A DNA stretch of 59,233 bases from the NCBI GenBank assembly GCA_964352875.1, contig CAYGTP010000001.1:31471-90703 (forward strand), written 5' to 3'. Positions 3,923-53,988 of the stretch are shown piece by piece. The DNA is from an uncultured Candidatus Saccharibacteria bacterium. GTDB lineage: Bacteria; Patescibacteriota; Minisyncoccia; Phycocordibacterales; UBA918. Made by a program: the position numbers and the translations under genes. Positions within the stretch are counted from its first letter, which is position 1, and the number at the start of each line of letters is the position of its first letter. Under the pieces are notes generated by a model, which was given only the letters and a program-made list of their open reading frames with translations, had not been told where the DNA came from and made no database searches.

Positions 3923-4471
3923 ATGGAAACCACACAACAAAGACTGAGTGGCGTATTTGCCACTATGAAAGAAACGCTTGGATTCAAGAATGTTCATCAA
4001 GCGCCAACTATTGAAAAAGTAGTGGTGTCAGTTGGAACTGGTAAGATTGATGACAAACAAAAGCTGGCTCTGATTCAAGACCGTATGGCGCAGATCACTG
4101 GCCAAAAGCCAGCGCCACGACCAGCCAGACAGTCAATTGCGAGCTTTAAACTACGTGAAGGTGATATCGTTGGTTATCAGGTGACCTTACGAGGTGCACG
4201 AATGAATCATTTTCTTGATAAGCTCATCAACATTGCGTTGCCGCAGACTCGTGACTTCCGTGGGCTCAACGCTACTGCGATTGACGAAATGGGAAACATT
4301 ACACTTGGTCTTAAAGAACATACGATCTTCCCAGAATGTACTGATGAAGAATTGAAAGATGTGTTTGGTATGGCGATCACAATTGTGACTACTGCCAAGA
4401 ACAAAGTTGAAGCTGAAGCGTTGCTTCGACACATTGGCTTGCCGTTGAAAAAAGAAGAAGTTACGGAGTAA
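3923..4471 (+). CDS. rplE: 50S ribosomal protein L5
   Basis: L5 motifs are present (SFKLREGDIVGYQVTLRG). It is the last ribosomal gene before the island. Confidence 0.97.
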   Translation: METTQQRLSGVFATMKETLGFKNVHQAPTIEKVVVSVGTGKIDDKQKLALIQDRMAQITGQKPAPRPARQSIASFKLREGDIVGYQVTLRGARMNHFLDKLINIALPQTRDFRGLNATAIDEMGNITLGLKEHTIFPECTDEELKDVFGMAITIVTTAKNKVEAEALLRHIGLPLKKEEVTE

Positions 4472-4480
4472 CTAATTCTT

Positions 4481-4509
4481 TTAGAAAGCAAATAGTTTTT
4501 GCTTTCTAA
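4481..4509 (+). terminator. hairpin after rplE (possible terminator)
   Basis: ttagaaagcaaa pairs with tttgctttctaa as a 12-bp stem. There is no clear U tail. Confidence 0.35.
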
Positions 4510-4679
4510 AACTGCAAGAGGCGGAGACATGTTTTTGCTATTCTCAATGCAAAAACAGTCGAGCCCGGGGAGGAAGTTCTTATGAGCGTAAGCGAATTAG
4601 AAACTTGACCCTGCCATTGCAGAAGCCTGAAGTTGCAGAAGCTGAATAGTTTCGCAGCATAGCAAAATACAATACATAA

Positions 4680-4714
4680 CACCAAAGCCCGGCGCGTAGC
4701 GCCGGGCTTTGGTG
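4680..4714. terminator. GC-rich perfect 16-bp hairpin
   Basis: caccaaagcccggcgc, loop gta, then gcgccgggctttggtg. Composition already resembles the island. Confidence 0.4.
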
Positions 4715-4776
4715 CGTCATTGACAAAACTAAATAATTAAAGCATATTATTAGGAAATCAATCGGGAGGAACATCA

Positions 4777-4869
4777 ATGAGAAAGAAGCGGATTGCACGC
4801 CATATGTATGTGGAGTTCGGTGTAATTCTACTCCTCATCCTACTGGTAATGATAATGATATTTGGGTAA
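4777..4869 (+). CDS. 30-aa hydrophobic micro-protein (candidate, not in the ORF track)
   Basis: GGGAGG lies 7 nt upstream of the ATG at 4777. The product MRKKRIARHMYVEFGVILLLILLVMIMIFG has a basic N-terminus and one transmembrane span. An intrinsic terminator follows directly. Confidence 0.45.
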   Translation: MRKKRIARHMYVEFGVILLLILLVMIMIFG

Positions 4870-4881
4870 CGTGACACATCA

Positions 4882-4916
4882 CGCCCCGGTCTGTATTCAG
4901 ACCGGGGCGGTTTTCA
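4882..4916 (+). terminator. intrinsic terminator
   Basis: cgccccggtctg pairs with cagaccggggcg as a 12-bp stem, followed by gttttcatt. Confidence 0.75.
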
Positions 4917-4927
4917 TTATAGCGAGT

Positions 4928-4960
4928 ACAAAAATCCCGGCGCACGATGGGTGCGCCGGG
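4928..4960 (-). terminator. intrinsic terminator of the 4989-6248 gene
   Basis: cccggcgcac pairs with gtgcgccggg, and a T run (atttttgt) follows on the minus strand. Confidence 0.7.
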
Positions 4961-4988
4961 TGCGGTATACATCTTCTTAGTCTGCCAA

Positions 4989-6248
4989 TTAGCGCTGCTT
5001 GATTTGCTCTCCGCGCAGCTCGTTGCCGAGGCTTTGGCTGGCCTGGAAGCAAAGCATAATCAGCACGCCCCAGATCATACCGAAGAAACCAGTGCCGAGC
5101 GCCCAGATGAGAATAGTAGCCACCATCTGCATCTTGGTGAGATTGAGTTTGGCACCGATCACGGTGGGCGTGTAGTTGTACGCCTCCAACAATCCGAGCA
5201 CCTTGCTGATCGCCAAAATGGCTCCGGTCTTGATCAGGAACACGTCGATCAGAAGACCAAACGACCCAATCTCAAACCCAAACCAGCCGAGACCGGGTTG
5301 GAAGTTGAGGATCATGAGTAGACCACCAACCCCCATCGCGATGGCACCGCCGATCTTCCAGATGGCGGTAATGAACCCGAGGGTGAGCGATATGAGGAGC
5401 AGGGCTCCCAAGCTCATGTTGAACGGAAACAGCACCATCAGCACGAAGTAGATAGCCGAGAGTGTCATCGCCACTTCAAGGAAACCGATCATGAGGACAC
5501 TCAGACCCTCTTGATACAGCTCAAGGTAGCGCATGAAATTACGCCGCAGCTGACTGTTCGGGTTGTTCGAGATCCCTTCGACTACGATGTAACGGAACCG
5601 GTCACACTCTGTTCGCCAGTACTTCATCATCTGGCCGAGCAAAATGATGCTGATAACAAGCAGGACCCAGTCCTTCAGCAGCACTCCGGTGACCTTCAGT
5701 GTGACGCTCGAGAGTGTCAGTGCGAGCTTCTTGAGGTCGCCGAACACTTGCCCAATGATGCCGCCCGTTACACCTGCGACGTCACCCTGAGGCACGAGAC
5801 CTGGCGCTACTTCGCGCGACCAGTTCAAAGTCTCATTGAGGGCTGCCATGATGGTGCCTTGCTGAGCCGCCAAACGTTCGGCGAACACTGTGCCCTGCTG
5901 CTGCAAGATAAACACCAGTACCGGAAACGCCGCGAATGCAAAGATGAGCAGCGATCGACTCACCAGCTTGGCAGCGGCGTCTTCGGAGCTCATTTGGAGG
6001 TGGAACGCTCGCTCGTAGCGTTTGCCTCGCCAATTGAGTGCAAAGGTCAGTCGATGACCTGATTGCGCGAGACGTTCGATGTGCGGACGCACGCCAATTG
6101 CAAACAAGATCGTCCCCAGCATGTAGGCAAAGCCTTTCCAGCTGAAGATAATCGGTAGCGCGATGAACGCGATCACGAAGAGGATGAGTGTCAGCGTATC
6201 CACTCGCGGTAGATAGCGATCCACTCGGCTCGGTTGGTAGGAGGTCAT
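4989..6248 (-). CDS. multi-pass membrane protein (419 aa), possibly AI-2E/UPF0118-like permease topology (unverified)
   Basis: The ORF is long, GC-rich and has many hydrophobic spans. AGAGG lies 9 nt upstream of the ATG. Its own terminator follows. Confidence 0.75.
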   Translation of the reverse strand: MTSYQPSRVDRYLPRVDTLTLILFVIAFIALPIIFSWKGFAYMLGTILFAIGVRPHIERLAQSGHRLTFALNWRGKRYERAFHLQMSSEDAAAKLVSRSLLIFAFAAFPVLVFILQQQGTVFAERLAAQQGTIMAALNETLNWSREVAPGLVPQGDVAGVTGGIIGQVFGDLKKLALTLSSVTLKVTGVLLKDWVLLVISIILLGQMMKYWRTECDRFRYIVVEGISNNPNSQLRRNFMRYLELYQEGLSVLMIGFLEVAMTLSAIYFVLMVLFPFNMSLGALLLISLTLGFITAIWKIGGAIAMGVGGLLMILNFQPGLGWFGFEIGSFGLLIDVFLIKTGAILAISKVLGLLEAYNYTPTVIGAKLNLTKMQMVATILIWALGTGFFGMIWGVLIMLCFQASQSLGNELRGEQIKQR

Positions 6249-6368
6249 GATTGGTACCTCTTTTTTATAAGAACAGCTCGGTCAAAAATTACCATAAAAC
6301 TTTACAAAGTCAATATGTGGTGGTAGGGTACGAGCGGAAAATAGGTAACACAAAGGAGCTAGGACACC

Positions 6369-7106
6369 ATGGAACCACTCCACCTTGTTGCGAATGAAAC
6401 AGTAGCCGCACTCACAGAGTATGCGCCTGCGGCAAGTGAGTACGCGAAGACATACCTCTTTGAGTTTTCGTTTGTGCTGCTTGGTCTCGCTACCGTTGCG
6501 GCGTTTTCGTACCTCAACCACCGTCGCATCCGACGAGCCTTGCGGCAGGGTCACCTTCCGCACGAAGTGATAGTAACGGTATGTATCTTCGATGAACAAC
6601 CTGATGGACGGGTATTCATCAAACCGCGAACAGTGCAGTCGGCTGAGCCGATTCTGCGAGCGTTTCCAAATCCAGCGCTCGTTGACATGATCATCAAAGC
6701 CACTAAGCGTTGTGATACGACCGCGCTCGGGTCGTTTATCATGTTGGGTGACCCGACCATGCATCATACGTTCATGAAGCGAGTGGTTGACATCGTATCT
6801 GAACTTGGCGGCCCTGGACATATCGTGCGCGCTTGTGGCGGAACGTTTGTGGAGTATGTCTGCTATTGTTGCGTGACGTTCTCGATGGATGGGCCGCATC
6901 GCAAAGTCCGGATCGACCTCATCAGTGAGCAGGATCTGCCGCAGCTTGTCGATGAGAACTATGTCGCTCGGTTGACCAATCGCCCAGAAGAAGGATCGCA
7001 TGCCGACTTGGTGGCAATTCTTCAGGTATGTGCTCGTAAACACCAGGAGCGGTCAAGCGACGTCGCAACGTACGTGCGTCGAGTGTCGATTTCGATACCT
7101 GCGTAG
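6369..7106 (+). CDS. hypothetical protein with an N-terminal membrane anchor (245 aa)
   Basis: AAGGAG lies 10 nt upstream of the ATG. A transmembrane span (FEFSFVLLGLATVAAFSYL) is followed by a basic stretch. I prefer it to the overlapping antisense ORF 6282-7043. Confidence 0.6.
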   Translation: MEPLHLVANETVAALTEYAPAASEYAKTYLFEFSFVLLGLATVAAFSYLNHRRIRRALRQGHLPHEVIVTVCIFDEQPDGRVFIKPRTVQSAEPILRAFPNPALVDMIIKATKRCDTTALGSFIMLGDPTMHHTFMKRVVDIVSELGGPGHIVRACGGTFVEYVCYCCVTFSMDGPHRKVRIDLISEQDLPQLVDENYVARLTNRPEEGSHADLVAILQVCARKHQERSSDVATYVRRVSISIPA

Positions 7107-7182
7107 TCGTTTCTCGGTCGCAACCTACGTTGCAGTCGAGACACACTAACATTCGCCGTGAGTAACGGAGAAGGAGGTACAC

Positions 7183-8106
7183 ATGTTCAAACGACTCTGG
7201 ACCCGATGTCAGGGAGAAGTGTTGGAGCTAATTCGGCTTGTCTTCCTGATTGGGCTGACGATCGCTGTGGCGGTCGGGGGGTATCTGGTCTACGAACGGT
7301 ACCTCCTGCAGACGATTGAGCTTCTACTTGAAGCGATGGGCTCATGGTGGGAAACACTCAGCATCGCTGGGTTGTGGCGAAACCTCGTCACCTGGTTTAT
7401 CGCCATGGGCCGCAATTGGGTGTTGGTGGAGATCCCGAAACGGCTAGCGATCCTCTACCTGGTCCCGACGATCGTGCTCATGTTGCTCCCGGGCACCTGG
7501 GTGTCAGCCATTAAGCGGTGGTTGCGGCGCCGCAAGGATAACGTACTTCGCTGCAAGAGCTGGTTCGTTGGCCACGCTGAGCGGTGGTTTGGCAAGTATG
7601 CGGGACACGCCATTGCAGCAATCTTGGCCCTCATATTCTTCGTGATCTTCTACAGCTTCTTTTCGGTCTACATGGTGCTGTGGCTTGGGTTCATCAAGCT
7701 CCCGAGCTCGGTGGTGTGGGTCTTTACGCTGGTGTGGGGTAAGTTGGTTTACTTTGCGCAGAAGCTTGGCTTCCGCAAGTGGGCCTTCCGTTTAACTGGC
7801 TGGATCGGTCGCCTCGCCCGACGCTGGATGGCGCCGATCGTGATGCGACTCATGCCAGATTTCCACTGGTTTCGGTGGATTGGTCGGAAACTCAGACTGA
7901 CCCGCCAGTTGACCGACGAGGAAAAGCGACAAAAGAAACGTGATCGTGTGCGCTGGGCGATTCGCCAGCGCTATCGCAATGCCGAATGGATTGTGAAGCG
8001 ACGAGAACGACTGGCTCGCATCGCACAGTTGCGTGGTCGGCGTGCGACTGCAGATCAAGTGTGCAGAGAGCAGACACCGCCGGTCTTGCCCAAGGCTGCC
8101 GAGTGA
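7183..8106 (+). CDS. membrane protein with a Trp/Arg-rich C-terminal tail (307 aa)
   Basis: GGAGAAGGAGG lies upstream of the ATG. Several transmembrane spans precede a tail reading RRWMAPIVMRLMPDFHWFRWIGRKLRL...KRRERLARIAQLRGRR. Confidence 0.75.
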   Translation: MFKRLWTRCQGEVLELIRLVFLIGLTIAVAVGGYLVYERYLLQTIELLLEAMGSWWETLSIAGLWRNLVTWFIAMGRNWVLVEIPKRLAILYLVPTIVLMLLPGTWVSAIKRWLRRRKDNVLRCKSWFVGHAERWFGKYAGHAIAAILALIFFVIFYSFFSVYMVLWLGFIKLPSSVVWVFTLVWGKLVYFAQKLGFRKWAFRLTGWIGRLARRWMAPIVMRLMPDFHWFRWIGRKLRLTRQLTDEEKRQKKRDRVRWAIRQRYRNAEWIVKRRERLARIAQLRGRRATADQVCREQTPPVLPKAAE

Positions 8107-8213
8107 ACCCTCGCCGCACCGTCCAAAGGACGGTGCGGCATTTACTTTTTAAAAAAATGTGCTTTAATTAAAAACAAACAGTACTTCAGTACTTCAAAAT
8201 AAAAGGAGGGACA

Positions 8214-9197
8214 ATGTCCAAAAATCACCACACTCGCTTTGGTGCGTTCATCGCCCTGGCGGGGGTGGTGGCGTACGTGCTGTGTCTCTGGGCGCCACCG
8301 ATTGTAATTGAATACCTACGTGAAGCCCAGGCATTTCTCGCCTGGCTGTGGATCGAGGTCTTCAAAGAGCAATTCTGGCAGAACGTGCTTCTGGTGGTGA
8401 GTATCTGGTTCAAGAAGTCGATTGTAAAGTCGATTATCATGGCCATTCTCACGCCGATCTTGCTCGTAGTATTTCTAGTCGCTCTCTTTGACGCCCGTGA
8501 CCGGCGTCGCATTAGGGCGTTCAAAGCCAAGCAGGTACGTCGCGCCAAGCTGTGGTACCGGTACGTGAAAGGATATTTCTACCGCACTTTTGGGTACTAC
8601 GGGATCTTCGCGCTGTTGATCTCGATCGTTACCATGGTGTGGGCCGCCTTCACGGTCAGTTGGCAAGTACTGGCTTGGCTGGTGTCGCTCGGTCCAGTGA
8701 AGCAGATTGCCATGCGACTGTACTGGGTAGTGCAGCCGCTGGTTGAACTTATCTGGCCATACGTTCAGATAATGCTGCGCAACCTCTACCACAACGTGCC
8801 GGGAGTGGCGCGAATCGTGAATGGAGTGAGTTGGCTATGGCATCGACTCATCACCGGTTGGATACCAGTCGTCTCGTACTGGCAGCGCCGGATTGGACGC
8901 CGGTTCGTACGCTTCCTGGTGCGGCAACGCTGGGTACGTGGGTACCTCCACGCCCAAGCCCGAGCGCGGATTCAAGAGATCCGTGAGGCACGACGGCTTA
9001 AGACCGAAGCGCGGATGCTCGGAATCGACCCGGATGGTGTGCCAGGACAAGGCTGGCGTGGTCGTAACTACGGTATGCGCTACGAACGGAATGCGCGTTG
9101 CGTATCCGACCGAGCCTGGGCACGGCTCATGCTTGGAGCAAACCTCAAGCCGACCCTCTGGGAAGGGGCGACCGTTTGCGGCCGCCCACCCGTCTAA
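8214..9197 (+). CDS. membrane protein with a Trp/Arg-rich C-terminal tail (327 aa), architecture like 7183-8106
   Basis: AAAGGAGGG lies upstream of the ATG. It shares a basic loop followed by an FGxYG motif and transmembrane spans with the upstream gene, and has the tail WQRRIGRRFVRFLVRQRWVRGYL. Confidence 0.75.
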   Translation: MSKNHHTRFGAFIALAGVVAYVLCLWAPPIVIEYLREAQAFLAWLWIEVFKEQFWQNVLLVVSIWFKKSIVKSIIMAILTPILLVVFLVALFDARDRRRIRAFKAKQVRRAKLWYRYVKGYFYRTFGYYGIFALLISIVTMVWAAFTVSWQVLAWLVSLGPVKQIAMRLYWVVQPLVELIWPYVQIMLRNLYHNVPGVARIVNGVSWLWHRLITGWIPVVSYWQRRIGRRFVRFLVRQRWVRGYLHAQARARIQEIREARRLKTEARMLGIDPDGVPGQGWRGRNYGMRYERNARCVSDRAWARLMLGANLKPTLWEGATVCGRPPV

Positions 9198-9338
9198 CCG
9201 CCCGGTGAAGTCTTCACTGGGCGGTTTATCTTTGACTTTTTTAAAATAAGTGCTATAATCACGGACAGCGACCGTGAGGTCAAAAAAAGAAAAAACAAGA
9301 TCTTTGCGGTCTTCACAAAACAAACTAAGGAGAACAAC

Positions 9339-11801
9339 ATGGAAGGAACTTCCGTCACTCCGGTTCCGCCGGAGCCGACCGATGACCAGCCGACGCTGGT
9401 CGGACGTTTGAAAAAAGCCGGCCGCACGACACTGCCGTTTGCGGTTAGTGGCGCCGTCGTCCTTGGGTACGTCTTCGTGCCCTACGTCGAGCAGAGCCTC
9501 AACTGGCTTACGGCCATGGGGCTGATTGGCCTCTCGTGGTTATGGGCTAATGGCTACGCCATGCCGGCCCTCTGGGGCGTTCTCCTCTACCTGGTGAACG
9601 CCATCGCCGGCTTCCGCGTGCGGACCTGGTTCTACAACATGGGCCGCGTCCGCGACGAGGCCAAGTCCAAAAACCTCGGCCGAGGTTTTCTTCACTCCAC
9701 CGTGAGTGTCAACGACTTCATCGCTGCCGCTCTTGTCGGTGTTGGCTACACCTTCTACACGATCGTCGCCACCCCGACCGAAGTCGGTGTCGCATCGCCC
9801 ACGCTGTGGGATGTGCTCACCGGTTGGCGAGCTCACCTTGAGCTCCTTGAGGTATCGGGCGGCGTACTGCTCGGTATCTGGGCAGCGCCGTGGCTCGGGC
9901 GACTTCTGCTCGGCTTTCGGTACATCGCTACACTCGGTCGTCGGGTGCACTACGAAGAGTGGCGGGTGCTTGTCTGGACGCTGCGGCAGATCGCCACGAT
10001 CTATAGCCGCCTCTACGAGTGGGGTCACCTTGACGCGAAGCTCACCGAAGAGGAGGAAGCTGCCAACCGGCAGGCTCTCGGCATCGCCCGGGTGACCATC
10101 TACCCCTTCGCGTTTGCGTACAATACGCTGCGTGGAGTCGGATGGTTTCTGTTCGGTCGCCGGGAAACCTGGAGTGGCTCGCTTTTCAAGGTACTCACCT
10201 GGATCATCATCCTCGTGGTACTGCCCTGGACGCGCGAGCTCTGGGCGCCGGTTTTGGTCAAGGTCGTTAATTTCGGCCTGTACCTACCGATCATGTCGAT
10301 GGCGATTGCTACCTTGTGGGGAGTCTACCGACTTTTCCGCTGGGTTGGTAACCTCACTCGCCAGTCGTGGATTGGTGAAGCGCTCGGTGTAACCGCCGTT
10401 GCGCTGCTGGCGATCTTCATGGCAAAGCTGGCCGATGAGGTGAACTACTACACCCACCTCTACGCTCAGCATGAGTCACTGGCAATCGTGCCGGTGAATG
10501 GGGCGACGCTGCCGGTCATGGTAGAGCCGCGGCTGTATCCGCTGGCGGTGATGCGAGACGGGATGAATGCCAAGCTCGAAGCTGGCGTCACCACGGCCTC
10601 CAATCCGGCCTATGTGTCGGTGGGTGACAAGCAGATGTGGACGGCCATGATCGACCGGCTCCACCTCATGGAGCGGTGGGCGAAACCGGCGACTGATTTG
10701 TTCGCTCTGCCGGCAACCTCGACCAGCGTGACGTTCGGGCGTGACGAAGGTCAGCGCCAGAGTGTCTGCTTCGATGCTCACCCGCAGGGTGTCGCGGGGC
10801 GAAATGTCTACACTGCCGCGCATCGTCGCTTGCCGCTCTCGCGGTTGGCCACGCACGAGCCGCACGAAATGCGGCTGATGCAGGACGATGCTGGCCGCTG
10901 GGTGCAGGTGGTTTCGTTCGGCCGGTTTGCCGGATTCCCGCGGCAGAAGAAATTCGGTGGGGTGGTCGTGATTCCCCAATGCAACCAGTACCAGCAGGTC
11001 TGGCTGCAGGGCACCTGGCTCGGCTCACTGTGGCCGGCGGGTGCTGAGGCGATTGACGACGCCATCCCTTCGATGGTCTATCGCGAACTCTTCGGTCTCG
11101 GCACGTACGTGTCACCGGAAGAGATTGCGGCTGGGAAGTTCTCCTTCCTGACGGGGAACAACCTGATTGCCGAGGCGACGGCCAGGCGGATTGCGGAAAG
11201 CTTTCGCTTCCACCGGGACGTTTGGGCGCCGTTCTCGACCAGTCGGTCGGGTGACGTGCGGATCCCAGACTCGGTCACGGACCGCAACCATATGCCGCAC
11301 TTTGGTAGGTGGGTGGGGTTGTCGGACCGATCGGAGCCAGCGATGTACGCGCATATCGCGCTGCAGCCGTGGGGCGAGGGTGACACCTTGGCCTATGATC
11401 TATGGATCCCGGCTGATGGTGCGACTGACGCCGATGGCCGACCGATTGTGTACATGCTCGATGCTACGGCGGAGGGGATGGACACGATGGACGGACCGAC
11501 GGCGGTCGCGGCCAAGGTTCGCAACGCTTTGCCGGAAGCGGTGTGGGGTCGGTTTGAGATCGCTGAGGTAACCGCCTACAAGCGGGAACTCGGCGGCTCG
11601 GTGCGATCGCTCTATTTGGCTCGATTGGTCAGTAAGAGTAATCGTGACAGCCTGGTGTTTACCAGCGATCTCCGGATGTACGTGTATGATCCGGAGTTCG
11701 CTCAGGTGCACCAACTTACCGACCCGGACGCCGGTGAGGTAGCCTGGGACGCCGAAATCCTTGCCGCCTTCGGCAAAAAGTGGGGCGTTACCCTGAAGTA
11801 A
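9339..11801 (+). CDS. large membrane protein (820 aa): N-terminal multi-transmembrane region of about 370 aa plus an unrecognised soluble domain of about 450 aa
   Basis: TAAGGAG lies upstream of the ATG. The ORF is long and uninterrupted in high-GC DNA, and a terminator follows. Confidence 0.85.
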   Translation: MEGTSVTPVPPEPTDDQPTLVGRLKKAGRTTLPFAVSGAVVLGYVFVPYVEQSLNWLTAMGLIGLSWLWANGYAMPALWGVLLYLVNAIAGFRVRTWFYNMGRVRDEAKSKNLGRGFLHSTVSVNDFIAAALVGVGYTFYTIVATPTEVGVASPTLWDVLTGWRAHLELLEVSGGVLLGIWAAPWLGRLLLGFRYIATLGRRVHYEEWRVLVWTLRQIATIYSRLYEWGHLDAKLTEEEEAANRQALGIARVTIYPFAFAYNTLRGVGWFLFGRRETWSGSLFKVLTWIIILVVLPWTRELWAPVLVKVVNFGLYLPIMSMAIATLWGVYRLFRWVGNLTRQSWIGEALGVTAVALLAIFMAKLADEVNYYTHLYAQHESLAIVPVNGATLPVMVEPRLYPLAVMRDGMNAKLEAGVTTASNPAYVSVGDKQMWTAMIDRLHLMERWAKPATDLFALPATSTSVTFGRDEGQRQSVCFDAHPQGVAGRNVYTAAHRRLPLSRLATHEPHEMRLMQDDAGRWVQVVSFGRFAGFPRQKKFGGVVVIPQCNQYQQVWLQGTWLGSLWPAGAEAIDDAIPSMVYRELFGLGTYVSPEEIAAGKFSFLTGNNLIAEATARRIAESFRFHRDVWAPFSTSRSGDVRIPDSVTDRNHMPHFGRWVGLSDRSEPAMYAHIALQPWGEGDTLAYDLWIPADGATDADGRPIVYMLDATAEGMDTMDGPTAVAAKVRNALPEAVWGRFEIAEVTAYKRELGGSVRSLYLARLVSKSNRDSLVFTSDLRMYVYDPEFAQVHQLTDPDAGEVAWDAEILAAFGKKWGVTLK

Positions 11802-11834
11802 CCCTCCACACTCTGATCTCATCGTGAGATCCGC

Positions 11835-11868
11835 GCGCGCAGCTATAATGGCTGCGCGCTTTTCTTTT
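11835..11868 (+). terminator. intrinsic terminator of the 820-aa gene
   Basis: gcgcgcagc pairs with gctgcgcgc, followed by ttttctttt. Confidence 0.8.
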
Positions 11869-11882
11869 GTAGCGGTAACTAC

Positions 11883-11917
11883 GTAAAAACGCCCACGGAA
11901 TGAGTTCCGTGGGCGTT
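11883..11917 (-). terminator. intrinsic terminator of the 11926-12675 gene
   Basis: aacgcccacggaa pairs with ttccgtgggcgtt, and a T run follows on the minus strand. Confidence 0.75.
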
Positions 11918-11925
11918 GTATTGGG

Positions 11926-12675
11926 TTAGTGTGCCTGGAGTAACGCGCCGAACTGACTCGGCAACTCCTCGAGCAGTGACCACTCATTGCCCTTGGGTGT
12001 GTCACACCCGAGCGCTGCTGTCATGTAGGCGGCTGCGTTATCAGGTAGCCCGTTGTCGCGAAGGTGCTGGAAGGTGGGAGATGTTCGAATTGCTTGCTCG
12101 ATTGCTGGACCTTTTTCGGGCAAGAATGTCGCTAACAGGTCAGCAACCGGAGCTGACTGATGACCGTCGACTGCTTGGTGGGCATAAATCAGATCCAACA
12201 GCACATCAGTTCGCTTACTTTCGCTGATACTGTCACCGGCTCGGCCGAGCAAGTAGAGGCCGAGGTATTTTTGCGCCAAATGCTCCTCGGCCGACTGTGT
12301 ACGGTGACGCCGTGATTTCAGCAGTGTTAATCCTGCCCGCAGCAGCACCGAGCGAAGTAATGACTCGATTCTCTCGTCGAGGCCAATCGTACGATTGAAG
12401 CCAGCGGCTTGTTCGGCACTGAGTGAGGCCCGAGCGGCTTTTAACTGGACCGCGAACTGCACCACGGTGCGCAAGTCAGAGGCTCCACTGAGCGACTGTA
12501 CCAGACGAATGAGATCACTCGTATTCGTGTATCGACCCAGGTCCTCACTGAGTTTGTCTGTGGTTGCTCGCACATCAAACCCATGCTGCCACAAACGGTT
12601 CAGTAGGTAAGGCGCAACAACATTGCTACCAAAAAACTTCAGTGCCAAGATGGCTGTCGTGGTAACCAGTGCCAT
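11926..12675 (-). CDS. hypothetical, mostly helical protein (249 aa)
   Basis: GGAGGG lies upstream of the ATG. The ORF is clean. No family recognised. Confidence 0.75.
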   Translation of the reverse strand: MALVTTTAILALKFFGSNVVAPYLLNRLWQHGFDVRATTDKLSEDLGRYTNTSDLIRLVQSLSGASDLRTVVQFAVQLKAARASLSAEQAAGFNRTIGLDERIESLLRSVLLRAGLTLLKSRRHRTQSAEEHLAQKYLGLYLLGRAGDSISESKRTDVLLDLIYAHQAVDGHQSAPVADLLATFLPEKGPAIEQAIRTSPTFQHLRDNGLPDNAAAYMTAALGCDTPKGNEWSLLEELPSQFGALLQAH

Positions 12676-12816
12676 AAGACCCTCCTGTTGTGTCTGTAGT
12701 CATTAAACTATAATTTTATAATTTGTAAACAACATGAGGGTTGTGGTACATGCTTCAGTAGCTGAACAAAAAACCAGCCCACGGTAATCATCGTAGGCTG
12801 GCAGAGTGCTATGGAG

Positions 12817-13008
12817 TCACTCAGGCTGTGTCTGTGTGCTGTCGAGCGGTGGTCTGGAGACCACTCCACCACGTTTGATTTCGGTCAGGGTGAGTCGCCC
12901 CGCCTCAACTACCATGCCGGCAGTCATAAGGCGAAGCAGCCACTTAGCGACCAGAGGCGTCAGTTTCGTACCCGTAGCCACGGCCACGGGGATGAGTAGC
13001 ATCGGCAT
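12817..13008 (-). CDS. small hydrophobic protein s2 (63 aa)
   Basis: I chose the internal ATG at 13008 because AAGGAG lies 7 nt upstream and the start overlaps the stop of s1 (TGAtATG). The product begins MPMLLIPVAVATGTKLTPLVAKWLL... Confidence 0.5.
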   Translation of the reverse strand: MPMLLIPVAVATGTKLTPLVAKWLLRLMTAGMVVEAGRLTLTEIKRGGVVSRPPLDSTQTQPE

Positions 13009-13009
13009 A

Positions 13010-13183
13010 TCAGTTCTCCTTGGAGGATGAGTCTGCGGGACGATAGTGCGCGTCGCGGTAGGCAGCGGTCGCGACACCAATGGTGGTCGCGACGCCAAGC
13101 CAGCCGAGCAGGCCGAGTGCAAGTTGACGAGCGACTGTCGAATTGGCGATGGCTATGACAGGAACCAGAACTGGTGCAGGCAT
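13010..13183 (-). CDS. small hydrophobic protein s1 (57 aa, below the ORF-track cutoff)
   Basis: AAAGGAA lies 5 nt upstream of the ATG at 13183. The product is MPAPVLVPVIAIANSTVARQLALGLLGWLGVATTIGVATAAYRDAHYRPADSSSKEN. Confidence 0.5.
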   Translation of the reverse strand: MPAPVLVPVIAIANSTVARQLALGLLGWLGVATTIGVATAAYRDAHYRPADSSSKEN

Positions 13184-13251
13184 AACGTTTCCTTTCGTTA
13201 CTGTTGATGTGCTCTCTCTGTAGTATACACAAAAAGGTGCATTATTATGTC

Positions 13252-13284
13252 GGGCGCGAGCGAAGCTCGCGCCCTTGTTATTTC
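13252..13284 (+). terminator. GC-rich hairpin with a T-rich tail at the right edge of the island
   Basis: gggcgcgagc, loop gaa, gctcgcgccc, then ttgttatttc. Confidence 0.4.
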
Positions 13285-13394
13285 ATGTAATTCTGGTATT
13301 GTTGGCCACATCAACGCTGGGCAATAGCGCAGCGGGGAAGGCGAGCAAGCGTTGGCTAGCCAGCCGGATTTATCAGGGAGTACGTCACCGATTC

Positions 13395-13423
13395 TTGGTG
13401 ATACGGCTTCAAACAATTAAATA
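13395..13423 (+). promoter_or_regulatory. candidate promoter feeding leader element copy B and rpsN
   Basis: TTGGTG, a 17-nt spacer, then TAAATA. The -10-like box lies 4-5 nt before the 5' arm of the element, and copy A has TAATAA in the same position. Confidence 0.3.
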
Positions 13424-13427
13424 GAGA

Positions 13428-13524
13428 AGAGTAGGGCGATATGTTCGGTCTACGTCCGACGATGTGCTGGGAAGGCACATCTTAAGGACGTACTTTCGTA
13501 ATAGTCGCTACGCTCTTTTACTCA
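13428..13524 (+). promoter_or_regulatory. structured leader element, copy B (paired with 817-912)
   Basis: The closing stem pairs AGAG-TAGggCGA with TCGCTA-cg-CTCT. The inner hairpin pairs tacgtcc...gatgtgc with gcacatc...ggacgta. The 3' block 13495-13524 matches copy A and ends 3 nt before the rpsN ATG. Confidence 0.5.
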
Positions 13525-13527
13525 AGC

Positions 13528-13713
13528 ATGGCACGAACATCAATTGTGGTGCGCGCATCACGCGAACCTAAGTTCAAATGTCGAGTGGTACGACGGTGTC
13601 ATCTTTGTGGCCGCAAACGCGGGTACATGCGAGACTTTGACATGTGTCGTATTTGCTTCCGCGAAGCCGCTCACGAAGGACACATTCCAGGAGTTAAGAA
13701 ATCATCATGGTAA
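13528..13713 (+). CDS. rpsN: 30S ribosomal protein S14, short zinc-ribbon (type Z) form
   Basis: 61 aa with CxxC...CxxC ([20 protein letters not shown]). It directly precedes S8. Confidence 0.95.
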
Positions 13714-14099
13714 GCGATACAGTCGGCGATTTTATTATTCGTCTTAAAAACGCGGGCATGGTGGGTAAAGATACGGTATCACTACCGTACTCTAATCTTC
13801 GCCACGCGATCGCGACAAAGCTCAAGGAAGTCGGGTACATCGAAGACACTGGAACAGCGTCTGAAGGTGTAAAAAAGCAGTTGTCAGTCAAACTCAAATA
13901 CGAGAACGGCCGACATGCTATTAATGGTGTCAAACGAGTCAGTAAACCAGGTCGGCGACTCTACACCAAGGTGAAAGATATTCACCCGGTAAAGTTTGGC
14001 AATGGGCACATGATGCTCTCAACCCCAGCTGGAATTCTCACTGACCAAGAAGCACGTGAGAAACACATGGGTGGTGAGCAGCTCTTTATAATCTGGTAA
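13707..14099 (+). CDS. rpsH: 30S ribosomal protein S8
   Basis: [13 protein letters not shown] and a C-terminal GGEQLFIIW are typical of S8. Confidence 0.97.
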
Positions 14100-16130: not shown

Positions 16131-17402
16131 ATGCAAACATTTTTCCGCAAACTAAAGATTATCTTCACCGATGAGACAATTCGTAACCGAGTATTGTTCG
16201 TACTGGGGGCGATTGTTCTCTTCCGAATCTTGGCAGTAATCCCAATTCCAGGGGTAGATCAGTCAGTGTTGGAGCAATTCTTTGCCAATAACCAATTCCT
16301 CGGACTCCTCAACCTATTCTCAGGTGGGGGGCTCGCGAACCTCTCGATTGTGATGCTTGGAGTAGGGCCGTTTATTACGGCTTCTATCATCATGCAGTTA
16401 CTGACAGTCATGAGCCCACAACTCAAGAGTTTATACACCGAAGAAGGAGAAGCCGGCCGCGCCAAGTTTACGCAGTACAGTCGGTTACTCACATTACCAC
16501 TGGCTGTATTACAAGGCTTTGGATTTCTCACGCTACTACAGAGTCAAGGGGTAATCTCTGGTCTTTCGACCTTTGAATTTGTAACGAACGTTATTCTGGT
16601 AGTGGCAGGTTCAATCCTCTTGATGTGGATTGGTGAGTTGGTAACCGAATACGGAATTGGTAACGGTGTATCCATCATTATCTTTGCTGGTATCGTGGCC
16701 GGACTGCCGTCTACGCTTTCGCAGCTACTCTTTAGCTTTGATCCATCGCAACTACCGCTCTACATTGGCTTTGGAGTCATTGCACTCTTGGTAATTTTGG
16801 CAGTGGTTGTAATGACCGAGGCTGAACGACCAGTACCGATTACTTACGCCAAGCAGAGTCGTGGTGGCAAAACGTACGGTGGCTCAGCCTCATACCTCCC
16901 ACTTCGCCTCAACCAAGCTGGTGTTATCCCGATCATCTTTGCGATCTCAATCCTATTGTTCCCGCAGATGATTTTGAACATCCTCTCAGCCTTTGAATTC
17001 CCGTGGGTAGGTCCGGCTAATGAAGCTGTAACCACATTCCTTAATAATCAAATTTATTATGGTTTGGCTTACTTTGTCTTGGTCTTCCTCTTTACCTTCT
17101 TCTACACAGCGGTAACGTTTGACCCAGATGCCATTGCCAAGAACTTGCAACGATCAGGAGCATTTGTCCCGGGTCTGCGACCAGGCGCACAGACTTCAGA
17201 GTACCTTGGTAATCTGATTACACGTCTGACGCTCGTAGGCGCTATGTTCCTTGGCTTTGTGGCTGTCTTGCCAGTTGGAATGCAAGTCTTCACTGGAGTA
17301 TCTGCTCTAGCGATTGGTGGAACAGCACTCTTGATTATTGTGTCAGTTGTCCTTGATTTGATACGCCGACTCGATGCTCAAATATCTCTTCGCGAATATT
17401 AA
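16131..17402 (+). CDS. secY: preprotein translocase subunit SecY
   Basis: A 10-transmembrane SecY-like sequence (GVGPFITASIIMQLL) in the expected position after rplO. Confidence 0.95.
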   Translation: MQTFFRKLKIIFTDETIRNRVLFVLGAIVLFRILAVIPIPGVDQSVLEQFFANNQFLGLLNLFSGGGLANLSIVMLGVGPFITASIIMQLLTVMSPQLKSLYTEEGEAGRAKFTQYSRLLTLPLAVLQGFGFLTLLQSQGVISGLSTFEFVTNVILVVAGSILLMWIGELVTEYGIGNGVSIIIFAGIVAGLPSTLSQLLFSFDPSQLPLYIGFGVIALLVILAVVVMTEAERPVPITYAKQSRGGKTYGGSASYLPLRLNQAGVIPIIFAISILLFPQMILNILSAFEFPWVGPANEAVTTFLNNQIYYGLAYFVLVFLFTFFYTAVTFDPDAIAKNLQRSGAFVPGLRPGAQTSEYLGNLITRLTLVGAMFLGFVAVLPVGMQVFTGVSALAIGGTALLIIVSVVLDLIRRLDAQISLREY

Positions 17403-23109: not shown

Positions 23110-24105
23110 ATGGATATAGAAACCTCGTCTTTTGCTGAATTGGAGTCGCGTATTAATGGTGCAGGTTTGTATAAAAAGCGGTATGGTTCTTACGCAGTGT
23201 ATGCGGGGCTTGTCTTGGCTGGGTTAGCAGTAAGCTTATATCTAGTTACGGTAACTGACAATGTGTGGTTACAAGTAGCAAATGCGTTATTTTTCGCATT
23301 TATGTCTGTGCAGGCAGGGATGCTTGGTCATGATTTTTCTCACCAGCAGGTGTTTCGATCCTCTGGTATTAATAGGTTTTTTGCAGTAGTTTGCTGGTCT
23401 GTAATTGGCGGTATTGGAGAGGAGTGGTGGTTTAGGAAACATAATGCTCACCACAAACACGTAAATCATGTTGATCTTGATCCTGATTTAGAGATTCCTT
23501 TTTTATTTGGAGAGGAGCAACAAAGTTCTAAGCCAGCCTGGATAAAAAAATACCTACTACCGTATCAGCACGTACTGTTCTTTTTTATTTTACCATTAGT
23601 GTACCCCAACTTTATTTTTCGTTCATTACTCATTGCGTTTCAAAATATTTCACTGAAAGTGTTGGTTGAGATTTTTCTGGTAATCGGCCATTTTGTTTTA
23701 TTGTTTGGTTTCGTGATGTATCACCTCCCTTGGTTTGTTGGAGTAATATTTTTCTCAGTTGCATTTTTAGCTGCTGGATTGTACATGTCCTTGGTTTTTG
23801 CTCCAAACCATAAAGGTATGGACATCAAGAGTGCTCATGAGGAAACCGTGTGGACTGATCAAATTACACTCACTAGAAATTTATACCCCAGTTTTTGGCA
23901 ATTTCATTTTTTTGGGGGGCTTAATTATCAAATTGAACATCATTTGTTTCCCAGCATGGCTCGTTACAATTATCCTCGTGCTCACAAGATTATCAAAGCG
24001 TTTTGTGTCGAACATAATATCTCATACTATGAAACAAGTTGGTGGCAATCACAAAAAGAAATTTACTTAGCACTAAAGAAAATGGCTCAGCATTATGTTG
24101 ATTAA
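23110..24105 (+). CDS. membrane fatty acid desaturase family protein
   Basis: Three histidine boxes are present: HDFSHQQ, HNAHHKH and QIEHHLFP. Confidence 0.85.
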   Translation: MDIETSSFAELESRINGAGLYKKRYGSYAVYAGLVLAGLAVSLYLVTVTDNVWLQVANALFFAFMSVQAGMLGHDFSHQQVFRSSGINRFFAVVCWSVIGGIGEEWWFRKHNAHHKHVNHVDLDPDLEIPFLFGEEQQSSKPAWIKKYLLPYQHVLFFFILPLVYPNFIFRSLLIAFQNISLKVLVEIFLVIGHFVLLFGFVMYHLPWFVGVIFFSVAFLAAGLYMSLVFAPNHKGMDIKSAHEETVWTDQITLTRNLYPSFWQFHFFGGLNYQIEHHLFPSMARYNYPRAHKIIKAFCVEHNISYYETSWWQSQKEIYLALKKMAQHYVD

Positions 24106-24142
24106 GACAAAAAGCCCGCGGCTACGCCGCGGGCTTTTTGTC
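24106..24142. terminator. bidirectional intrinsic terminator
   Basis: gacaaaaagcccgcgg pairs with ccgcgggctttttgtc. Confidence 0.8.
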
Positions 24143-24194
24143 TTGAAGATACTATTTAGCTTTCTCTACAACTCGAGCAAATACGTCCGGTCGG

Positions 24195-24323
24195 TCCAAA
24201 CTTTCAAGGTCCGACCTTGTAAGTTTGGTATAAAACAAAAGGCGACCTTTCTTCTATACAAGGTCCGACCTTGTATGGGTGTGTTACCATTTCACGTATT
24301 CTATACAAGGTCCGACCTTGTAT
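24195..24323 (+). repeat. REP cluster upstream of the RAYT gene (3 copies, central base C)
   Basis: CAAGGTCCGACCTTG occurs at 24205-19, 24256-76 and 24303-23. The last two copies lie inside a 47-bp tandem duplication (24254-24299 and 24301-24346). Confidence 0.9.
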
Positions 24324-24344
24324 GGGTGTGTTACCATTTCACGT

Positions 24345-25013
24345 ATGGGAAGAAGTATCGTTTTCGTCAGTGGTGAGTTTTATCACGTTTATAATCGAGG
24401 GACAGACAAGCGTGATGTATTTCTTGATGAGTCAGATTACAATCGCTTCATCACACTTCTTTATGTTGCTAATGGCACTGTACCGGTCGACCTAAAATTA
24501 CAAGGTCGGACCTTGTATGATGTGCGTAATATTGCTAGGGGAAATGAACTAGTAAATATTTGCGGTTATGCTTTAATGCCAAACCATTATCACCTCTTGC
24601 TGCAGGCAAATGTTGATGCTGGCGTTAGTGATTTTATGCGTAAGCTTGGTACGGCATATACTATGTATTTTAATACAAAGAACGAGCGAAGTGGAAATTT
24701 GTTTCAGGGAAAATTTAAAGCGACACATGTTAACGACGATCAATATTTACAATACTTGCTATCCTACATCCACCTAAATCCGGTCGCTCTTATAGAACCA
24801 AATTGGAAAGAAACGGGTATAAAAAATCGACAGCAAGCTAATCAGTTTTTATCTCAGTACAAGTATTCAAGCTACCCCGATTATTTAGAAATTAACAGAA
24901 TCGAAAGTATAGTTTTGAATCAAGGCGCGTTGCCAACAAATTTATCCGACGCAACTGATTTTAAAAGCGCAGTTGAATTCTGGTTGCAAGATTTACAAGG
25001 TCGGACCTTGTAA
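24345..25013 (+). mobile_element. REP-associated tyrosine transposase (RAYT, IS200/IS605-like Y1 HUH enzyme)
   Basis: The HUH motif LMPNHYHLLL and the catalytic-Tyr motif YIHLNPV are present. The gene is flanked by inverted REPs. One REP lies inside the CDS (24499-24517) and one overlaps the stop codon (24993-25013). Confidence 0.85.
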
Positions 25014-51883: not shown

Positions 51884-52807
51884 ATGCCCCAATGGAACGC
51901 AGGAGGAGTAAAGCTCCCACACGGTCCGTATATGATCGGTGCCGGTGTCTGCAAGACACCAGCCACCACTGAGGAGTGGCTTAAGGTCGCTCCGGTCGTA
52001 TCTGGTTCATACACACCGCAGCAGCGCGATGGAAATCCAGGCAAGGTCGTCTGGCCGGACTCCCTCGAAGAAATGCTTCGCATCGGTTACGGACTCAACA
52101 GCTACGGTATGCCCAATGCGGGTTTTGCCGCGGCTGCTACCAGTTTCCTTCAGTCGCAGAAAACTGAGCAACCGCTCATCGTGAGCGTCGCTGGCTTCTC
52201 GGTCGACGACTACGTGCTCGGTGTCAGGACATTTGGCGTTGTTTCGAATGTGACTGCGATTGAGCTCAACTTTGGGTGTCCCAATACCCAAGGCGAGCAT
52301 AATACTATCGTTTCCTTCGATCCTGATACAGTCTGGCAGATCATGCTTGGGATCGGACGTCTGGAGTTGCAAAAACCCATCTGGGTCAAACTGTCTCCGT
52401 ACAGCAACCCCCAAGACCTGCAGCGGATGGCTGAAATACTCAATCACTGCGTCGGTCCTCAACCGTTGGCTGTGGTGACTTGCAATACGTTTCCGAACGC
52501 CTTTGCAGGGGAAGGATTGATCGACCCCAATAGCGGTATGGCTGGTCTCTCAGGACCGGTGATGAAGCCAATCGCGCTCGGACAAGTCAAGCAGTTTCGC
52601 ACGCATCTCGACGAGCAGATCGATATTATCGGCGTTGGTGGTGTCACCACTGGCGACGATGTCGTCGATCTCCTCGAAGCTGGCGCCCAAGCGGTGCAGA
52701 TCACGTCGCTAGCCCACTGGGCTGGTGATCCACGGCGATTCCACCAACATCTACTCATCGGTGAGCGTTCTTCGCGTCTCGTCGAATACCTCACCAACGA
52801 CGCCTGA
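51884..52807 (+). CDS. pyrD: class 1-type dihydroorotate dehydrogenase family protein
   Basis: ELNFGCPNT, GLSGPVMKPIAL and IIGVGGVTTGDD are present. Confidence 0.8.
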   Translation: MPQWNAGGVKLPHGPYMIGAGVCKTPATTEEWLKVAPVVSGSYTPQQRDGNPGKVVWPDSLEEMLRIGYGLNSYGMPNAGFAAAATSFLQSQKTEQPLIVSVAGFSVDDYVLGVRTFGVVSNVTAIELNFGCPNTQGEHNTIVSFDPDTVWQIMLGIGRLELQKPIWVKLSPYSNPQDLQRMAEILNHCVGPQPLAVVTCNTFPNAFAGEGLIDPNSGMAGLSGPVMKPIALGQVKQFRTHLDEQIDIIGVGGVTTGDDVVDLLEAGAQAVQITSLAHWAGDPRRFHQHLLIGERSSRLVEYLTNDA

Positions 52808-52820
52808 AAGGAGGCACTAA

Positions 52821-53957
52821 ATGCAAGTACTACTTCAAAAAGATTCTGAATTTCGGGAGCTTGCCCTTTTCAATCATGAATCGGGTCAAGCAATCGTTTT
52901 CAACAAGGGTCTTGTCGACATCCACTCCCACGGTCGCGACAACAATGCGGTTCTCGGGAATGGAATGACCGACATCCTTGACCATTCGGTGCGTCAATTT
53001 GGCATGGTTCTGCTCATGCCGAACCTGGCTGGTAGGGATGCGCTCATGACCTGGCGAATGGCCATCGACTACTGGGAGCGTGCAACGCGCGCCAGTGGCG
53101 TGAAGCCAGACATGATGCGCATTCTGGTTACGGTCTATCTCAATACTGACCTGACCGAAGATGACATCAAGCGCATCGCCAACGATCCACGGGTCGCCGG
53201 TATCAAGTCCTATCCGGCGCACGGCACTACCGGTGCTGAGCATGGGCTGCGGACCCCGTTTGAAGCGGCAAAGCAGCTCGAGTGGATGGAGAAGTATGGT
53301 GTGCCGCTTCTGGTTCATGGCCAGATGCGGACGCAACTCAACGGCGAGATCCTTGACGAATGGGATCGTGAACCGTATTTCTACACCGAAGTTGCTCCTG
53401 TCCTTGATGATGCTTTCCCGGAACTTCGCATTTCCTACGAGCATCTTTCGACTGGGATTGGCGCACAAACCGTGGCAGAACGGAAGGGACCAACTCAAGG
53501 CACTTTCACCATTCTTCACCTCGGCTACACCCGTACTGACGTGATGGACACCGGTGTTCGCACCGACATGGTGATGAAGCCGATGGTGCAACACGAACGT
53601 GAGCGACCCAAACTCTGGGAAGTTTTTCGGGCAGCACCTGATCGCTTCGCGCTCGGTTCTGACGATGCGTGGCATCCTATAACTGCCAAGCATACCAAAA
53701 ACTGTGCTTGTGGTGGCTGCTATGGCCCCTACCGGGTCGGCTACTACCTCGACGTATTCGAAGAAGCACAAGCGCTAGACCTCTTCGGTCGGTTCGCTTG
53801 CGTCAACGCAGCGCGCTTCTATGGCGTCGAGGTGCCAAAGAAACGCATTGAAATGCGGAAAGGTAACTACACGGTTGCTGAAATGCTGCCGTTTGGCGAC
53901 CACAAGGCGCAGCCACTCCATGCTGGTGAAAAGCGGTTTGGGTGGTACCAAGTCTAA
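52821..53957 (+). CDS. pyrC: class II (E. coli PyrC-type) dihydroorotase homolog
   Basis: The protein is collinear with PyrC landmarks: DIHSHGRD, MPNL, KSYPAHGTTG, PLLVHGQ, YEHLST, GSDDAWH and CGGCYG. Confidence 0.8.
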   Translation: MQVLLQKDSEFRELALFNHESGQAIVFNKGLVDIHSHGRDNNAVLGNGMTDILDHSVRQFGMVLLMPNLAGRDALMTWRMAIDYWERATRASGVKPDMMRILVTVYLNTDLTEDDIKRIANDPRVAGIKSYPAHGTTGAEHGLRTPFEAAKQLEWMEKYGVPLLVHGQMRTQLNGEILDEWDREPYFYTEVAPVLDDAFPELRISYEHLSTGIGAQTVAERKGPTQGTFTILHLGYTRTDVMDTGVRTDMVMKPMVQHERERPKLWEVFRAAPDRFALGSDDAWHPITAKHTKNCACGGCYGPYRVGYYLDVFEEAQALDLFGRFACVNAARFYGVEVPKKRIEMRKGNYTVAEMLPFGDHKAQPLHAGEKRFGWYQV

Positions 53958-53988
53958 GCTGTTCTTTCGGGAAGAAATATCAAGACTC

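Follow-up and report, generated by a model that had tools for sequence, protein, structure and literature searches.

Why should ~9 kb of other genes lie between rplE and rpsN, in the middle of a ribosomal protein cluster? This question is raised by contig CAYGTP010000001.1 of an uncultured Candidatus Saccharibacteria bacterium (assembly GCA_964352875.1), of which we analysed a stretch of 59,233 nucleotides, hereafter the window. In this window, 9056 nt separate the stop codon of rplE (position 4471) from the start codon of rpsN (13528), and Pfam confirms the genes at both ends. An earlier note on this DNA, made from the letters alone, had described the interval as a horizontally acquired island of membrane protein genes inside an otherwise tight operon. 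Our analysis points instead to an accessory-gene bay: a site at an operon boundary, shared by the host clade, that holds an old and recurrent gene module and may exchange its contents through the flanking genes. We put the probability of this explanation as a whole at roughly two in three.

The interval differs from its surroundings in base composition and in translation signals, and here the earlier note was borne out. Its GC content is 0.557, compared with 0.481 in 6 kb of flanking DNA, and windows of 500 nt peak at 0.62–0.64 between 9.5 and 11.5 kb. GC content at third codon positions (GC3) is 0.52–0.75 in the island genes, against a core mean of 0.433 (s.d. 0.074, range 0.28–0.56, n = 55 window open reading frames (ORFs)). 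A Shine–Dalgarno (SD) motif (GGAG, GAGG or AGGA at −20 to −4) precedes 9/9 island genes and 1/55 core ORFs (Fisher p = 3.6e-10). A conservative re-test, in which a core ORF was credited when any candidate start within its first 40 codons had an SD motif, still separated the two groups (6/6 island genes, 8/55 core ORFs; p = 5e-5). The GC-rich terminators that had been reported were also located, as eight terminator-like hairpins spread through the island, with most island genes having one on their 3′ side. Because each gene has its own SD motif and most have their own terminator, the module is predicted to be expressed independently of the ribosomal units. By contrast, tetranucleotide usage corrected for base composition lies inside the host range (r = 0.72–0.79 to the host for the island; 0.67–0.86 for ordinary host segments). 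The island is thus GC-shifted and otherwise not alien.

Foreign DNA joined to a contig of the Candidate Phyla Radiation (CPR) during assembly or binning could give the same appearance, and the possibility of a chimeric join had been raised at the outset. In the Logan assembly of run ERR3534985, a contig of 9142 bp (L077; contigs and relatives are cited by such handles) is 100% identical to window positions 4582–13723. This contig stops close to both island edges, and exact-product look-ups for the rplE and rpsH genes of the window found no record of either as a complete gene; both points would suit an artefact. The same contig, however, spans the island and continues through the native S8 leader described below and through rpsN into the first bases of rpsH. 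Independently, L086 (run SRR33375177) links the final 46 rplE codons (85% identity) to the RNA element that follows rplE and then to homologs of three island genes, i419, i307 and i327, in the arrangement of the window. On the other side, L078 and L080/L081 carry homologs of a fourth gene, i820, directly 5′ of the S8 leader and of rpsN-rpsH-rplF...secY. With both junctions recurring in independent assemblies, an artefact is effectively excluded, and we give it almost no credence. The ERR3534985 sample also holds L081, a more distant relative in which an 821-aa homolog of i820 (34% identity) lies directly 5′ of rpsN, and two module-bearing lineages (L077 and L081) therefore co-occur in that sample.

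To place the window among its relatives, we compared it with genomes of its own clade, a Paceibacteria-like lineage of the Patescibacteria; the closest rplE among 76 species representatives is 79% identical to that of the window. We measured the spacing from the rplE stop to the rpsN start in the 64 relatives in which a single contig carries both genes, correcting for the long form of S14 in distant relatives. The median spacing is 722 nt (range 21–8228 nt). It amounts to at least 200 nt in 54 relatives, at least 500 nt in 45, at least 1 kb in 20 and at least 3 kb in 7, and to 60 nt or less in 4. The premise of a normal rplE–rpsN distance of a few nucleotides is therefore untrue for this clade, and the window has the largest example of a gap that is open throughout it. 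The module itself is real, distinct in composition and translation signals, membrane-associated and free of mobility genes, as the earlier note had described it; what does not survive is the picture of a one-off insertion that split a tight operon.

The content of the gaps varies from one relative to the next. They encode an ABC transporter with an OmpA-fused binding protein (L001), a TerC/DUF475 protein (L018), an aromatic amino acid lyase with a CN-hydrolase and an AMP-binding enzyme (L023), a MacB/FtsX transporter (L050), a TPM-domain protein (L012) or a DsbA-like thioredoxin (L013), and almost no protein families are common to different gaps. In the 24 relatives with gaps of at least 1 kb, cargo GC3 departs from that of the core both upwards and downwards. 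Chromosomal integration hotspots, in which variable gene content lies between the same conserved core genes, are found in many bacteria. The bay behaves like such a hotspot: across the 64 relatives, identical flanking core genes enclose unrelated, variable content, the composition of the cargo deviates in both directions, and the absence of mobility genes is compatible with homologous recombination through the flanks. It is unusual in its position, inside the ribosomal protein supercluster of reduced CPR genomes, and in being framed by two structured RNAs. Furthermore, turnover is seen here among species-level representatives and not among strains.

The lack of an integrase, transposase, tRNA or flanking direct repeat, already remarked from the letters, was upheld by database searches. 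Scans of all island proteins against Pfam, NCBIfam, PHROGs and PADLOC returned no significant match and no integrase, recombinase or transposase; the sole weak integrase line had an E value of 0.016 and 14 bits, against a cut-off of 350. The window contains no tRNA that could have served as a tRNA or tmRNA target, no Rfam family reached its gathering score in the window, and no flanking direct repeats were seen at the island boundaries. The segment resembles a classical genomic island or integrative element in its composition (GC +0.08, GC3 +0.1 to +0.3), but the recombinase, tRNA target and direct repeats are absent. Prophage, plasmid and defence-island readings were dropped, since PHROGs, PADLOC, a phage protein search, phage and plasmid DNA collections and a viral-contig scan gave no significant match.

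Two structured RNAs delimit the site. On the left, rplE (3923–4471, plus strand; Pfam Ribosomal_L5 and L5_C; no SD motif; GC3 0.39) ends the upstream ribosomal transcription unit and is followed by a multi-stem RNA of ~170 nt (4479–4650, plus strand), which opens with a perfect 14-bp hairpin (4479–4511). This RNA shares 75–80% nucleotide identity with elements in L009, L031, L007, L029, L014, L004, L117 and L086 and is also present in L005 and L027. It always starts 0–37 nt past the rplE stop, and in L029 and L117 it carries an insertion of ~90 nt. Covariation supports the structure: 13 of the 35 predicted pairs show compensatory changes, 0/500 shuffles match the alignment, and its score of 0.295 compares with at most 0.075 for slid controls. 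No credible Rfam family was found for this RNA, even at permissive thresholds.

The right edge is formed by a short hairpin (13358–13408, plus strand) that mimics the S8-binding site of 16S ribosomal RNA. Its alignment comprises 11 pairs, 8 of them with compensatory changes; paired cells make up 95% of the alignment and 80% in shuffles, with 0/500 shuffles reaching the observed value, and the covariation score is 0.53, against 0.08–0.13 for slid registers. The conserved core reads 5′ A-(C/A)-G-U-C-A ... U-G-A-N-A-C-(G/U) 3′. In helix 21 of 16S RNA, the S8 site consists of A595-(596-644), G597-C643 with N641 and A642, and U598-A640, with the 596/644 pair being A-U in E. coli and C-G in T. thermophilus (PMC4176348). 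We checked the E. coli helix 21 segment for this comparison. In the leader hairpin, the equivalents of G597-C643 and U598-A640 are present in 19/19 sequences each, while the 596/644 equivalent covaries (CG in 7, AU in 7), alternating between the E. coli and T. thermophilus states; inspection of the alignment also shows a conserved A at the 642 position. The hairpin was found in 21/65 gaps, 11–204 nt 5′ of rpsN; it occurs in relatives in the range L001–L036 and in L078 and L080/81. It has no Rfam family (Rfam 15), permissive thresholds included, and one survey of ribosomal leaders mentions no rpsN, rpsH or uS8 leader.

Because the hairpin reproduces the features of helix 21 and because rpsH, which encodes S8, lies directly 3′ of rpsN, we infer that it acts as an S8 feedback leader with which the downstream unit starts at rpsN. 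In E. coli, the mRNA carries a mimic of 16S helix 21 where rplE begins, and S8 binding to this mimic provides feedback on the spc operon (PMC4176348 and references therein). The window hairpin resembles that site in being broken by a conserved asymmetric loop, with equivalents of A595 and A642, covariation at 596/644 and invariant G597-C643 and U598-A640, and in lying in the leader of a unit that encodes S8. It differs in preceding rpsN and not rplE, which would leave L5 outside the presumed regulon; S8 binding is predicted here. The mimic would thus put a classic mechanism in a new place.

Downstream, the unit headed by rpsN (13528–13713, plus strand; zinc-type S14, 61 aa; Pfam Ribosomal_S14) reads rpsN-rpsH-rplF-rplR-rpsE-rplO-secY, with secY at 16131–17402 (Pfam SecY); the genes between rpsN and secY were named by alignment to the Pfam-annotated ribosomal protein genes of L078 and L080. 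Directly 5′ of rpsN lies a 30-nt leader, TTCGTAATAGTCGCTACGCTCYTTTACTCA (13495–13524, plus strand), with a second copy before rpsS at 883–912 (2 matches, 0 expected). The motif has the form TAARTTC-N3-ATAGTCGCTACGCTCYTTT and is also found before rpsS or rpsN in seven relatives (L002, L013, L016, L017, L021, L034 and L076). Its presence before both rpsS and rpsN fits both genes heading separate units. A third copy of the motif occurs in the window at ~54255 on the minus strand, with no obvious gene downstream.

The cargo sits between the post-rplE RNA and the S8 mimic, and a GC-rich terminator-like hairpin (13252–13274, plus strand) closes it at the right. The distance between the two RNAs ranges from 366–578 nt in L004, L007 and L027 through 2666 nt in L005 to 8718 nt in the window.

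How old is the present cargo? The triad i307, i327 and i820, in this order and with i419 nearby, recurs in L078, L079, L080/81, L084 and L086. A related arrangement is found in L117, a Paceibacteria-like groundwater genome with an rplE 73% identical to that of the window. There, a complete operon for an AAA ATPase, a DUF6638 protein and two membrane proteins, p220 and p530, together with an i249-like gene, follows directly after rplE and the post-rplE RNA (4220–11765 in rplE-forward coordinates). The i820 protein of the window joins a p220-like part and a p530 part in a single chain, and the two loci therefore present the same system at the rplE–rpsN site in two architectures. In a neighbour-joining tree of i419, the module-locus copies and their nearest relatives form one clade, with GC-rich non-CPR genes (43–47% identical) as its sister. 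These sister genes lie in genomes of 60–70% GC with proteobacterial-looking neighbourhoods. The family of the i820 domain, by contrast, occurs mostly in low-GC marine and soil contigs. In our view, the module has therefore long occupied the rplE–rpsN bay.

The GC3 of the module is decoupled from that of its host. In the window, the module has a GC3 of 0.52–0.75 and the host core 0.43; the corresponding values are 0.50 and 0.27–0.42 in L080, 0.33–0.47 and 0.29–0.45 (ribosomal genes and secY) in L078, and 0.47–0.57 and 0.52–0.64 in L117. For the module copies elsewhere, GC3 is 0.58 in L079 (i820 homolog only), 0.60–0.70 in L084 and 0.61–0.68 in L086. Together with the two-way deviation of cargo GC3, this decoupling is an indirect sign of repeated gain and loss by recombination. 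The module has probably moved between lineages, and a GC-richer relative is the likeliest source of the window copy.

These data bear directly on the kind of origin that the earlier note had in mind, a recent, one-step import in which a distant donor with high GC and SD usage, such as an actinobacterial or other host, would have supplied the module to a tightly packed ribosomal operon. The GC3 and SD contrasts of the window fit such an import, but the L078 module, at native GC, keeps AAGGAG/GGAGG motifs while the L078 core genes have none. The SD motifs therefore belong to the gene set and are not the fingerprint of a recent donor. The sister clade of i419 in 60–70% GC non-CPR genomes might indicate such a donor; against this, the best non-CPR identity is 43–47%, the module-locus copies of i419 are monophyletic, and no search returned an actinobacterial match, for which reason an actinobacterial donor was rejected. 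That the island genes bring their own terminators, and that a second SD-led, GC3-rich segment at 51.9–55.4 kb shows the genome to take up such DNA, also speaks for import. Nevertheless, tetranucleotide usage is not foreign, the operon was already open at rplE/rpsN clade-wide, and diverged relatives (L078, L080/L081 and L086) have the module in synteny at this very site, which, by the refuting condition that the earlier note had set, speaks for an old shared occupant and not a recent arrival. We consider a recent import from afar quite unlikely.

At the other extreme, the module could be ancestral and vertically inherited, with its GC3 raised in place, for instance by selection or, if the locus is prone to recombination, by GC-biased gene conversion. 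The identity of i820 to its homologs falls from 47% in L078 to 34% in L080, in the same order as that of secY (82% and 76%), and the host-like tetranucleotide usage also suits vertical descent. The module of L080 likewise exceeds its host in GC3, yet no shift is present in L078, and the operon of L117 lies slightly below its host. A GC3 shift of about +0.3 restricted to 8 kb would moreover be very large, and the cargo of other relatives deviates both ways, as imports would. Purely vertical inheritance thus appears improbable to us, though it deserves some weight.

We therefore favour the accessory-gene bay, which would have arisen as follows. In the Paceibacteria-like lineage, the ribosomal protein supercluster would have been split between rplE and rpsN into separate expression units, the upstream one closing with rplE and its structured RNA and the downstream one opening with the S8 mimic, followed by rpsN and rpsH. 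The DNA between the two RNAs could then be extended without upsetting the expression of the ribosomal genes, and would for that reason have become a clade-wide bay for accessory genes. The highly conserved genes on either side could serve as homology arms for exchange between lineages. Its cargo in the window would be an old recurrent set of i419, i307, i327 and i820, the last a fusion of p220 and p530 whose two cytoplasmic partners are absent from the window, and the GC-rich copy in the window would derive from a GC-richer relative carrying the same module. Within this explanation, the anatomy, the synteny, the homologies, the RNA covariation and the composition are direct observations, and S8 autoregulation, exchange by homologous recombination and the function of the module are proposals.

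Several observations weigh against this explanation. Both RNAs were found together in just 5 genomes at the E value used, and many of the shorter gaps in relatives are taken up by these RNAs and not by cargo. In favour of the bay, SD-like motifs in the 24 relatives with gaps of at least 1 kb are more frequent in cargo (29/64) than in flanking core genes (43/411; odds ratio 7, p = 2e-10), but this comparison carries the caveat that the core set consists mostly of operon-internal ribosomal genes. The closest module copy, in L086, is still distant (i419 77% identical) and contrasts weakly in GC with its own rplE fragment, while the module of L084 does not visibly adjoin rpsN. The Logan contig L077 ends near both island edges, at 4582, within the post-rplE RNA, and at 13723, a break for which the 31-mers common to the co-occurring relative L081 do not account; strain heterogeneity at the rplE–rpsN locus is possible. 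Finally, no recombination event has been demonstrated and no donor identified, and the GC3 excess (+0.25–0.3) has no mechanistic account.

A more ambitious version of the bay explanation is one that we advance tentatively and would not bet on. Here, the site would be a cargo bay of a whole CPR family, delimited by two previously undescribed RNAs, with cargo swapped through the flanks. SD-led cargo and SD-less core would follow different translation rules, and one recurrent tenant would be an unrecognised envelope system, distributed widely and with a new-fold domain, that CPR lineages have remodelled into an ATPase-free fusion.

The earlier note could assign none of the island proteins to a family, which no longer holds for i820 and i419. 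The gene for i820 (9339–11801, plus strand; terminator 11835–11859, plus strand) is preceded by a predicted promoter-like site at 9232–9259 (11/12 matches). A word-indexed homology search gave only self-matches for i820 and i249, and a first metagenome scan with an alignment of the long-form i820 found no match; the family emerged in a full HMMER scan, with 104 homologs. Three of these are full-length (35–48% identity), and ~100 are proteins of ~530 aa that align to residues ~280–820. The profile of this p530 family matches i820 with an E value of 1e-135. When searched with a p220 profile, all long-form proteins match at residues ~75–195 (E 7e-8 to 6e-4; small search space), indicating that i820 is a p220+p530 fusion. 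Its p220-like membrane part spans residues ~74–195, and its p530 part, residues ~270–820, comprises three transmembrane (TM) helices and an exposed domain of ~440 aa.

A conserved operon ends with the ~530-aa gene at 77 metagenome loci. Directly 5′ of it lies p220, which encodes a protein of ~220 aa with three TM helices (57/77 loci), preceded by a DUF6638 gene (53/77) and then by a gene for an AAA ATPase of 672 aa (37/77). In comparison with this four-gene operon, the window fuses the two membrane partners and adds two paralogs with four TM helices and an AI-2E-like permease; no homologs of the ATPase or DUF6638 were found in the window or at the other loci with the fused form. The literature search turned up no mention of DUF6638, and the operon has apparently not been described. 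The operon loci (L087–L166) are widespread in marine (TARA), soil and freshwater or groundwater metagenomes, on contigs of up to 4.3 Mb with a median GC of 0.34.

AlphaFold2 modelled residues 270–820 of i820, using the family alignment, with high confidence (predicted local distance difference test (pLDDT) 92.5, predicted TM-score (pTM) 0.91), as three TM helices and a two-lobed, beta-rich domain. A PDB sequence search with the p530 profile gave nothing meaningful. Beta-propeller-like PDB folds matched the model at a TM-score of ~0.2 and were not accepted. One unnamed viral protein in BFVD (A0A6G5YLZ4) resembles the p530 part structurally. From the positive-inside charge distribution, the p530 domain is predicted to lie outside the cell. 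Our best guess at function, and a speculative one, is an envelope complex embedded in the membrane, with the p530 domain of ~440 aa exposed on the cell exterior.

The i419 gene (4989–6248, minus strand; own terminator 4936–4960, minus strand) encodes a polytopic protein with 9 hydrophobic segments and 16 homologs. The AI-2E transporter family PF01594 is weakly matched by 6/16 family members (best E 3e-6); i419 itself gave no match to it at E ≤ 0.1, the curated threshold was not reached, and a PDB sequence search with the i419 profile gave nothing meaningful. In a comparison of the i419 model (pLDDT 65) with PDB folds, TqsA (7NB6) was the top and sole meaningful match (probability 1.00, TM-scores 0.39/0.45, E 0.019); YdiK was also among the fold matches, and support from hhalign was weak. 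Like TqsA and YdiK, i419 is polytopic and of similar size, and its C-terminal LEAYNYTPxxIG aligns with LEgnllTPwlvG of the family. Unlike them, it has no Pfam match, and it is 14–19% identical to a canonical member. These features suggest that i419 is a remote AI-2E-type permease, with predicted transport activity.

Two further core genes of the module encode proteins with four TM helices. The product of i307 (7183–8106, plus strand; terminator 8113–8139, plus strand) has an Arg-rich tail and homologs in L086 (~57%), L079 (36%), L084 (34%) and L078 (28%); it and the N-terminal region of i820 have a TWFxxMGR motif in common. Its distant paralog i327 (8214–9197, plus strand; terminator 9196–9226, plus strand) has homologs in L086 (54%), L084, L078 and L080, and the two families cross-match. 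The mostly soluble i249 (11926–12675, minus strand) has relatives in the rplE–rpsN gaps of L001 and L005 and beside p530 in L117.

The remaining cargo is lineage-specific. It includes i245 (6369–7106, plus strand), with one N-terminal TM helix, an AAAGGAG SD motif and a GC3 of 0.57, which was called as a gene in the Logan assembly; no homolog was found in Pfam, NCBIfam, PHROGs or the relatives, and it is missing from the closest relative, L086. A hydrophobic micro-ORF of 30 aa (4777–4869, plus strand), also called in the Logan assembly and with no homolog found, has a GGGAGG SD motif, a promoter-like site at 4720–4748 and a terminator at 4882–4909 (plus strand). Two small hydrophobic ORFs of 63 aa (12817–13008) and 57 aa (13010–13183), both on the minus strand, share the terminator at 12773–12802 (minus strand). 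The eighth terminator-like hairpin, GC-rich with a 17-bp stem, lies at 4679–4715 on the minus strand.

Ribosomal protein clusters provide a stable backbone for phylogeny and for the binning of uncultured bacteria. A recurrent variable site on the kilobase scale inside such a cluster thus bears on the assembly and binning of CPR genomes and on inference from synteny. The locus also offers three leads. A candidate new S8-type ribosomal leader would have the spc regulon begin at rpsN; a structured RNA, also new, follows rplE; and a conserved membrane system has a fold that is predicted with confidence and unmatched, is common in marine and soil bacteria, and is reduced in CPR to an ATPase-free fused form. 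The split between SD-led cargo and SD-less core, seen in the window and more weakly in the 24 relatives, suggests that initiation signals could flag acquired genes in SD-poor lineages, and raises the question of how the same ribosomes handle both gene classes. A literature search on SD usage in Patescibacteria returned nothing.

Other parts of the window also depart from the ordinary. At its start (235–1248), the ribosomal cluster begins at rpsS (919) with a minus-strand DUF2103-like gene before it, which gives the cluster a further break, between rplB and rpsS; at ~657–716, the window shares a conserved block of 35–55 nt with at least 9 relatives. The segment at 23110–25013, of low GC (0.37–0.40), encodes a fatty acid desaturase and an IS200/Y1-transposase-like ORF and looks compositionally atypical. 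The SD-led segment at 51884–55388, with an island-like GC3 of 0.54–0.61, encodes a dihydroorotate dehydrogenase (PF01180, E 9e-42) and proteins of 378 and 266 aa with no Pfam match. Within it, at 54104–54244, a seemingly non-coding stretch contains a tandem direct repeat of ~42 nt, one frame of which gives LEIKESLLDYNFGN twice.

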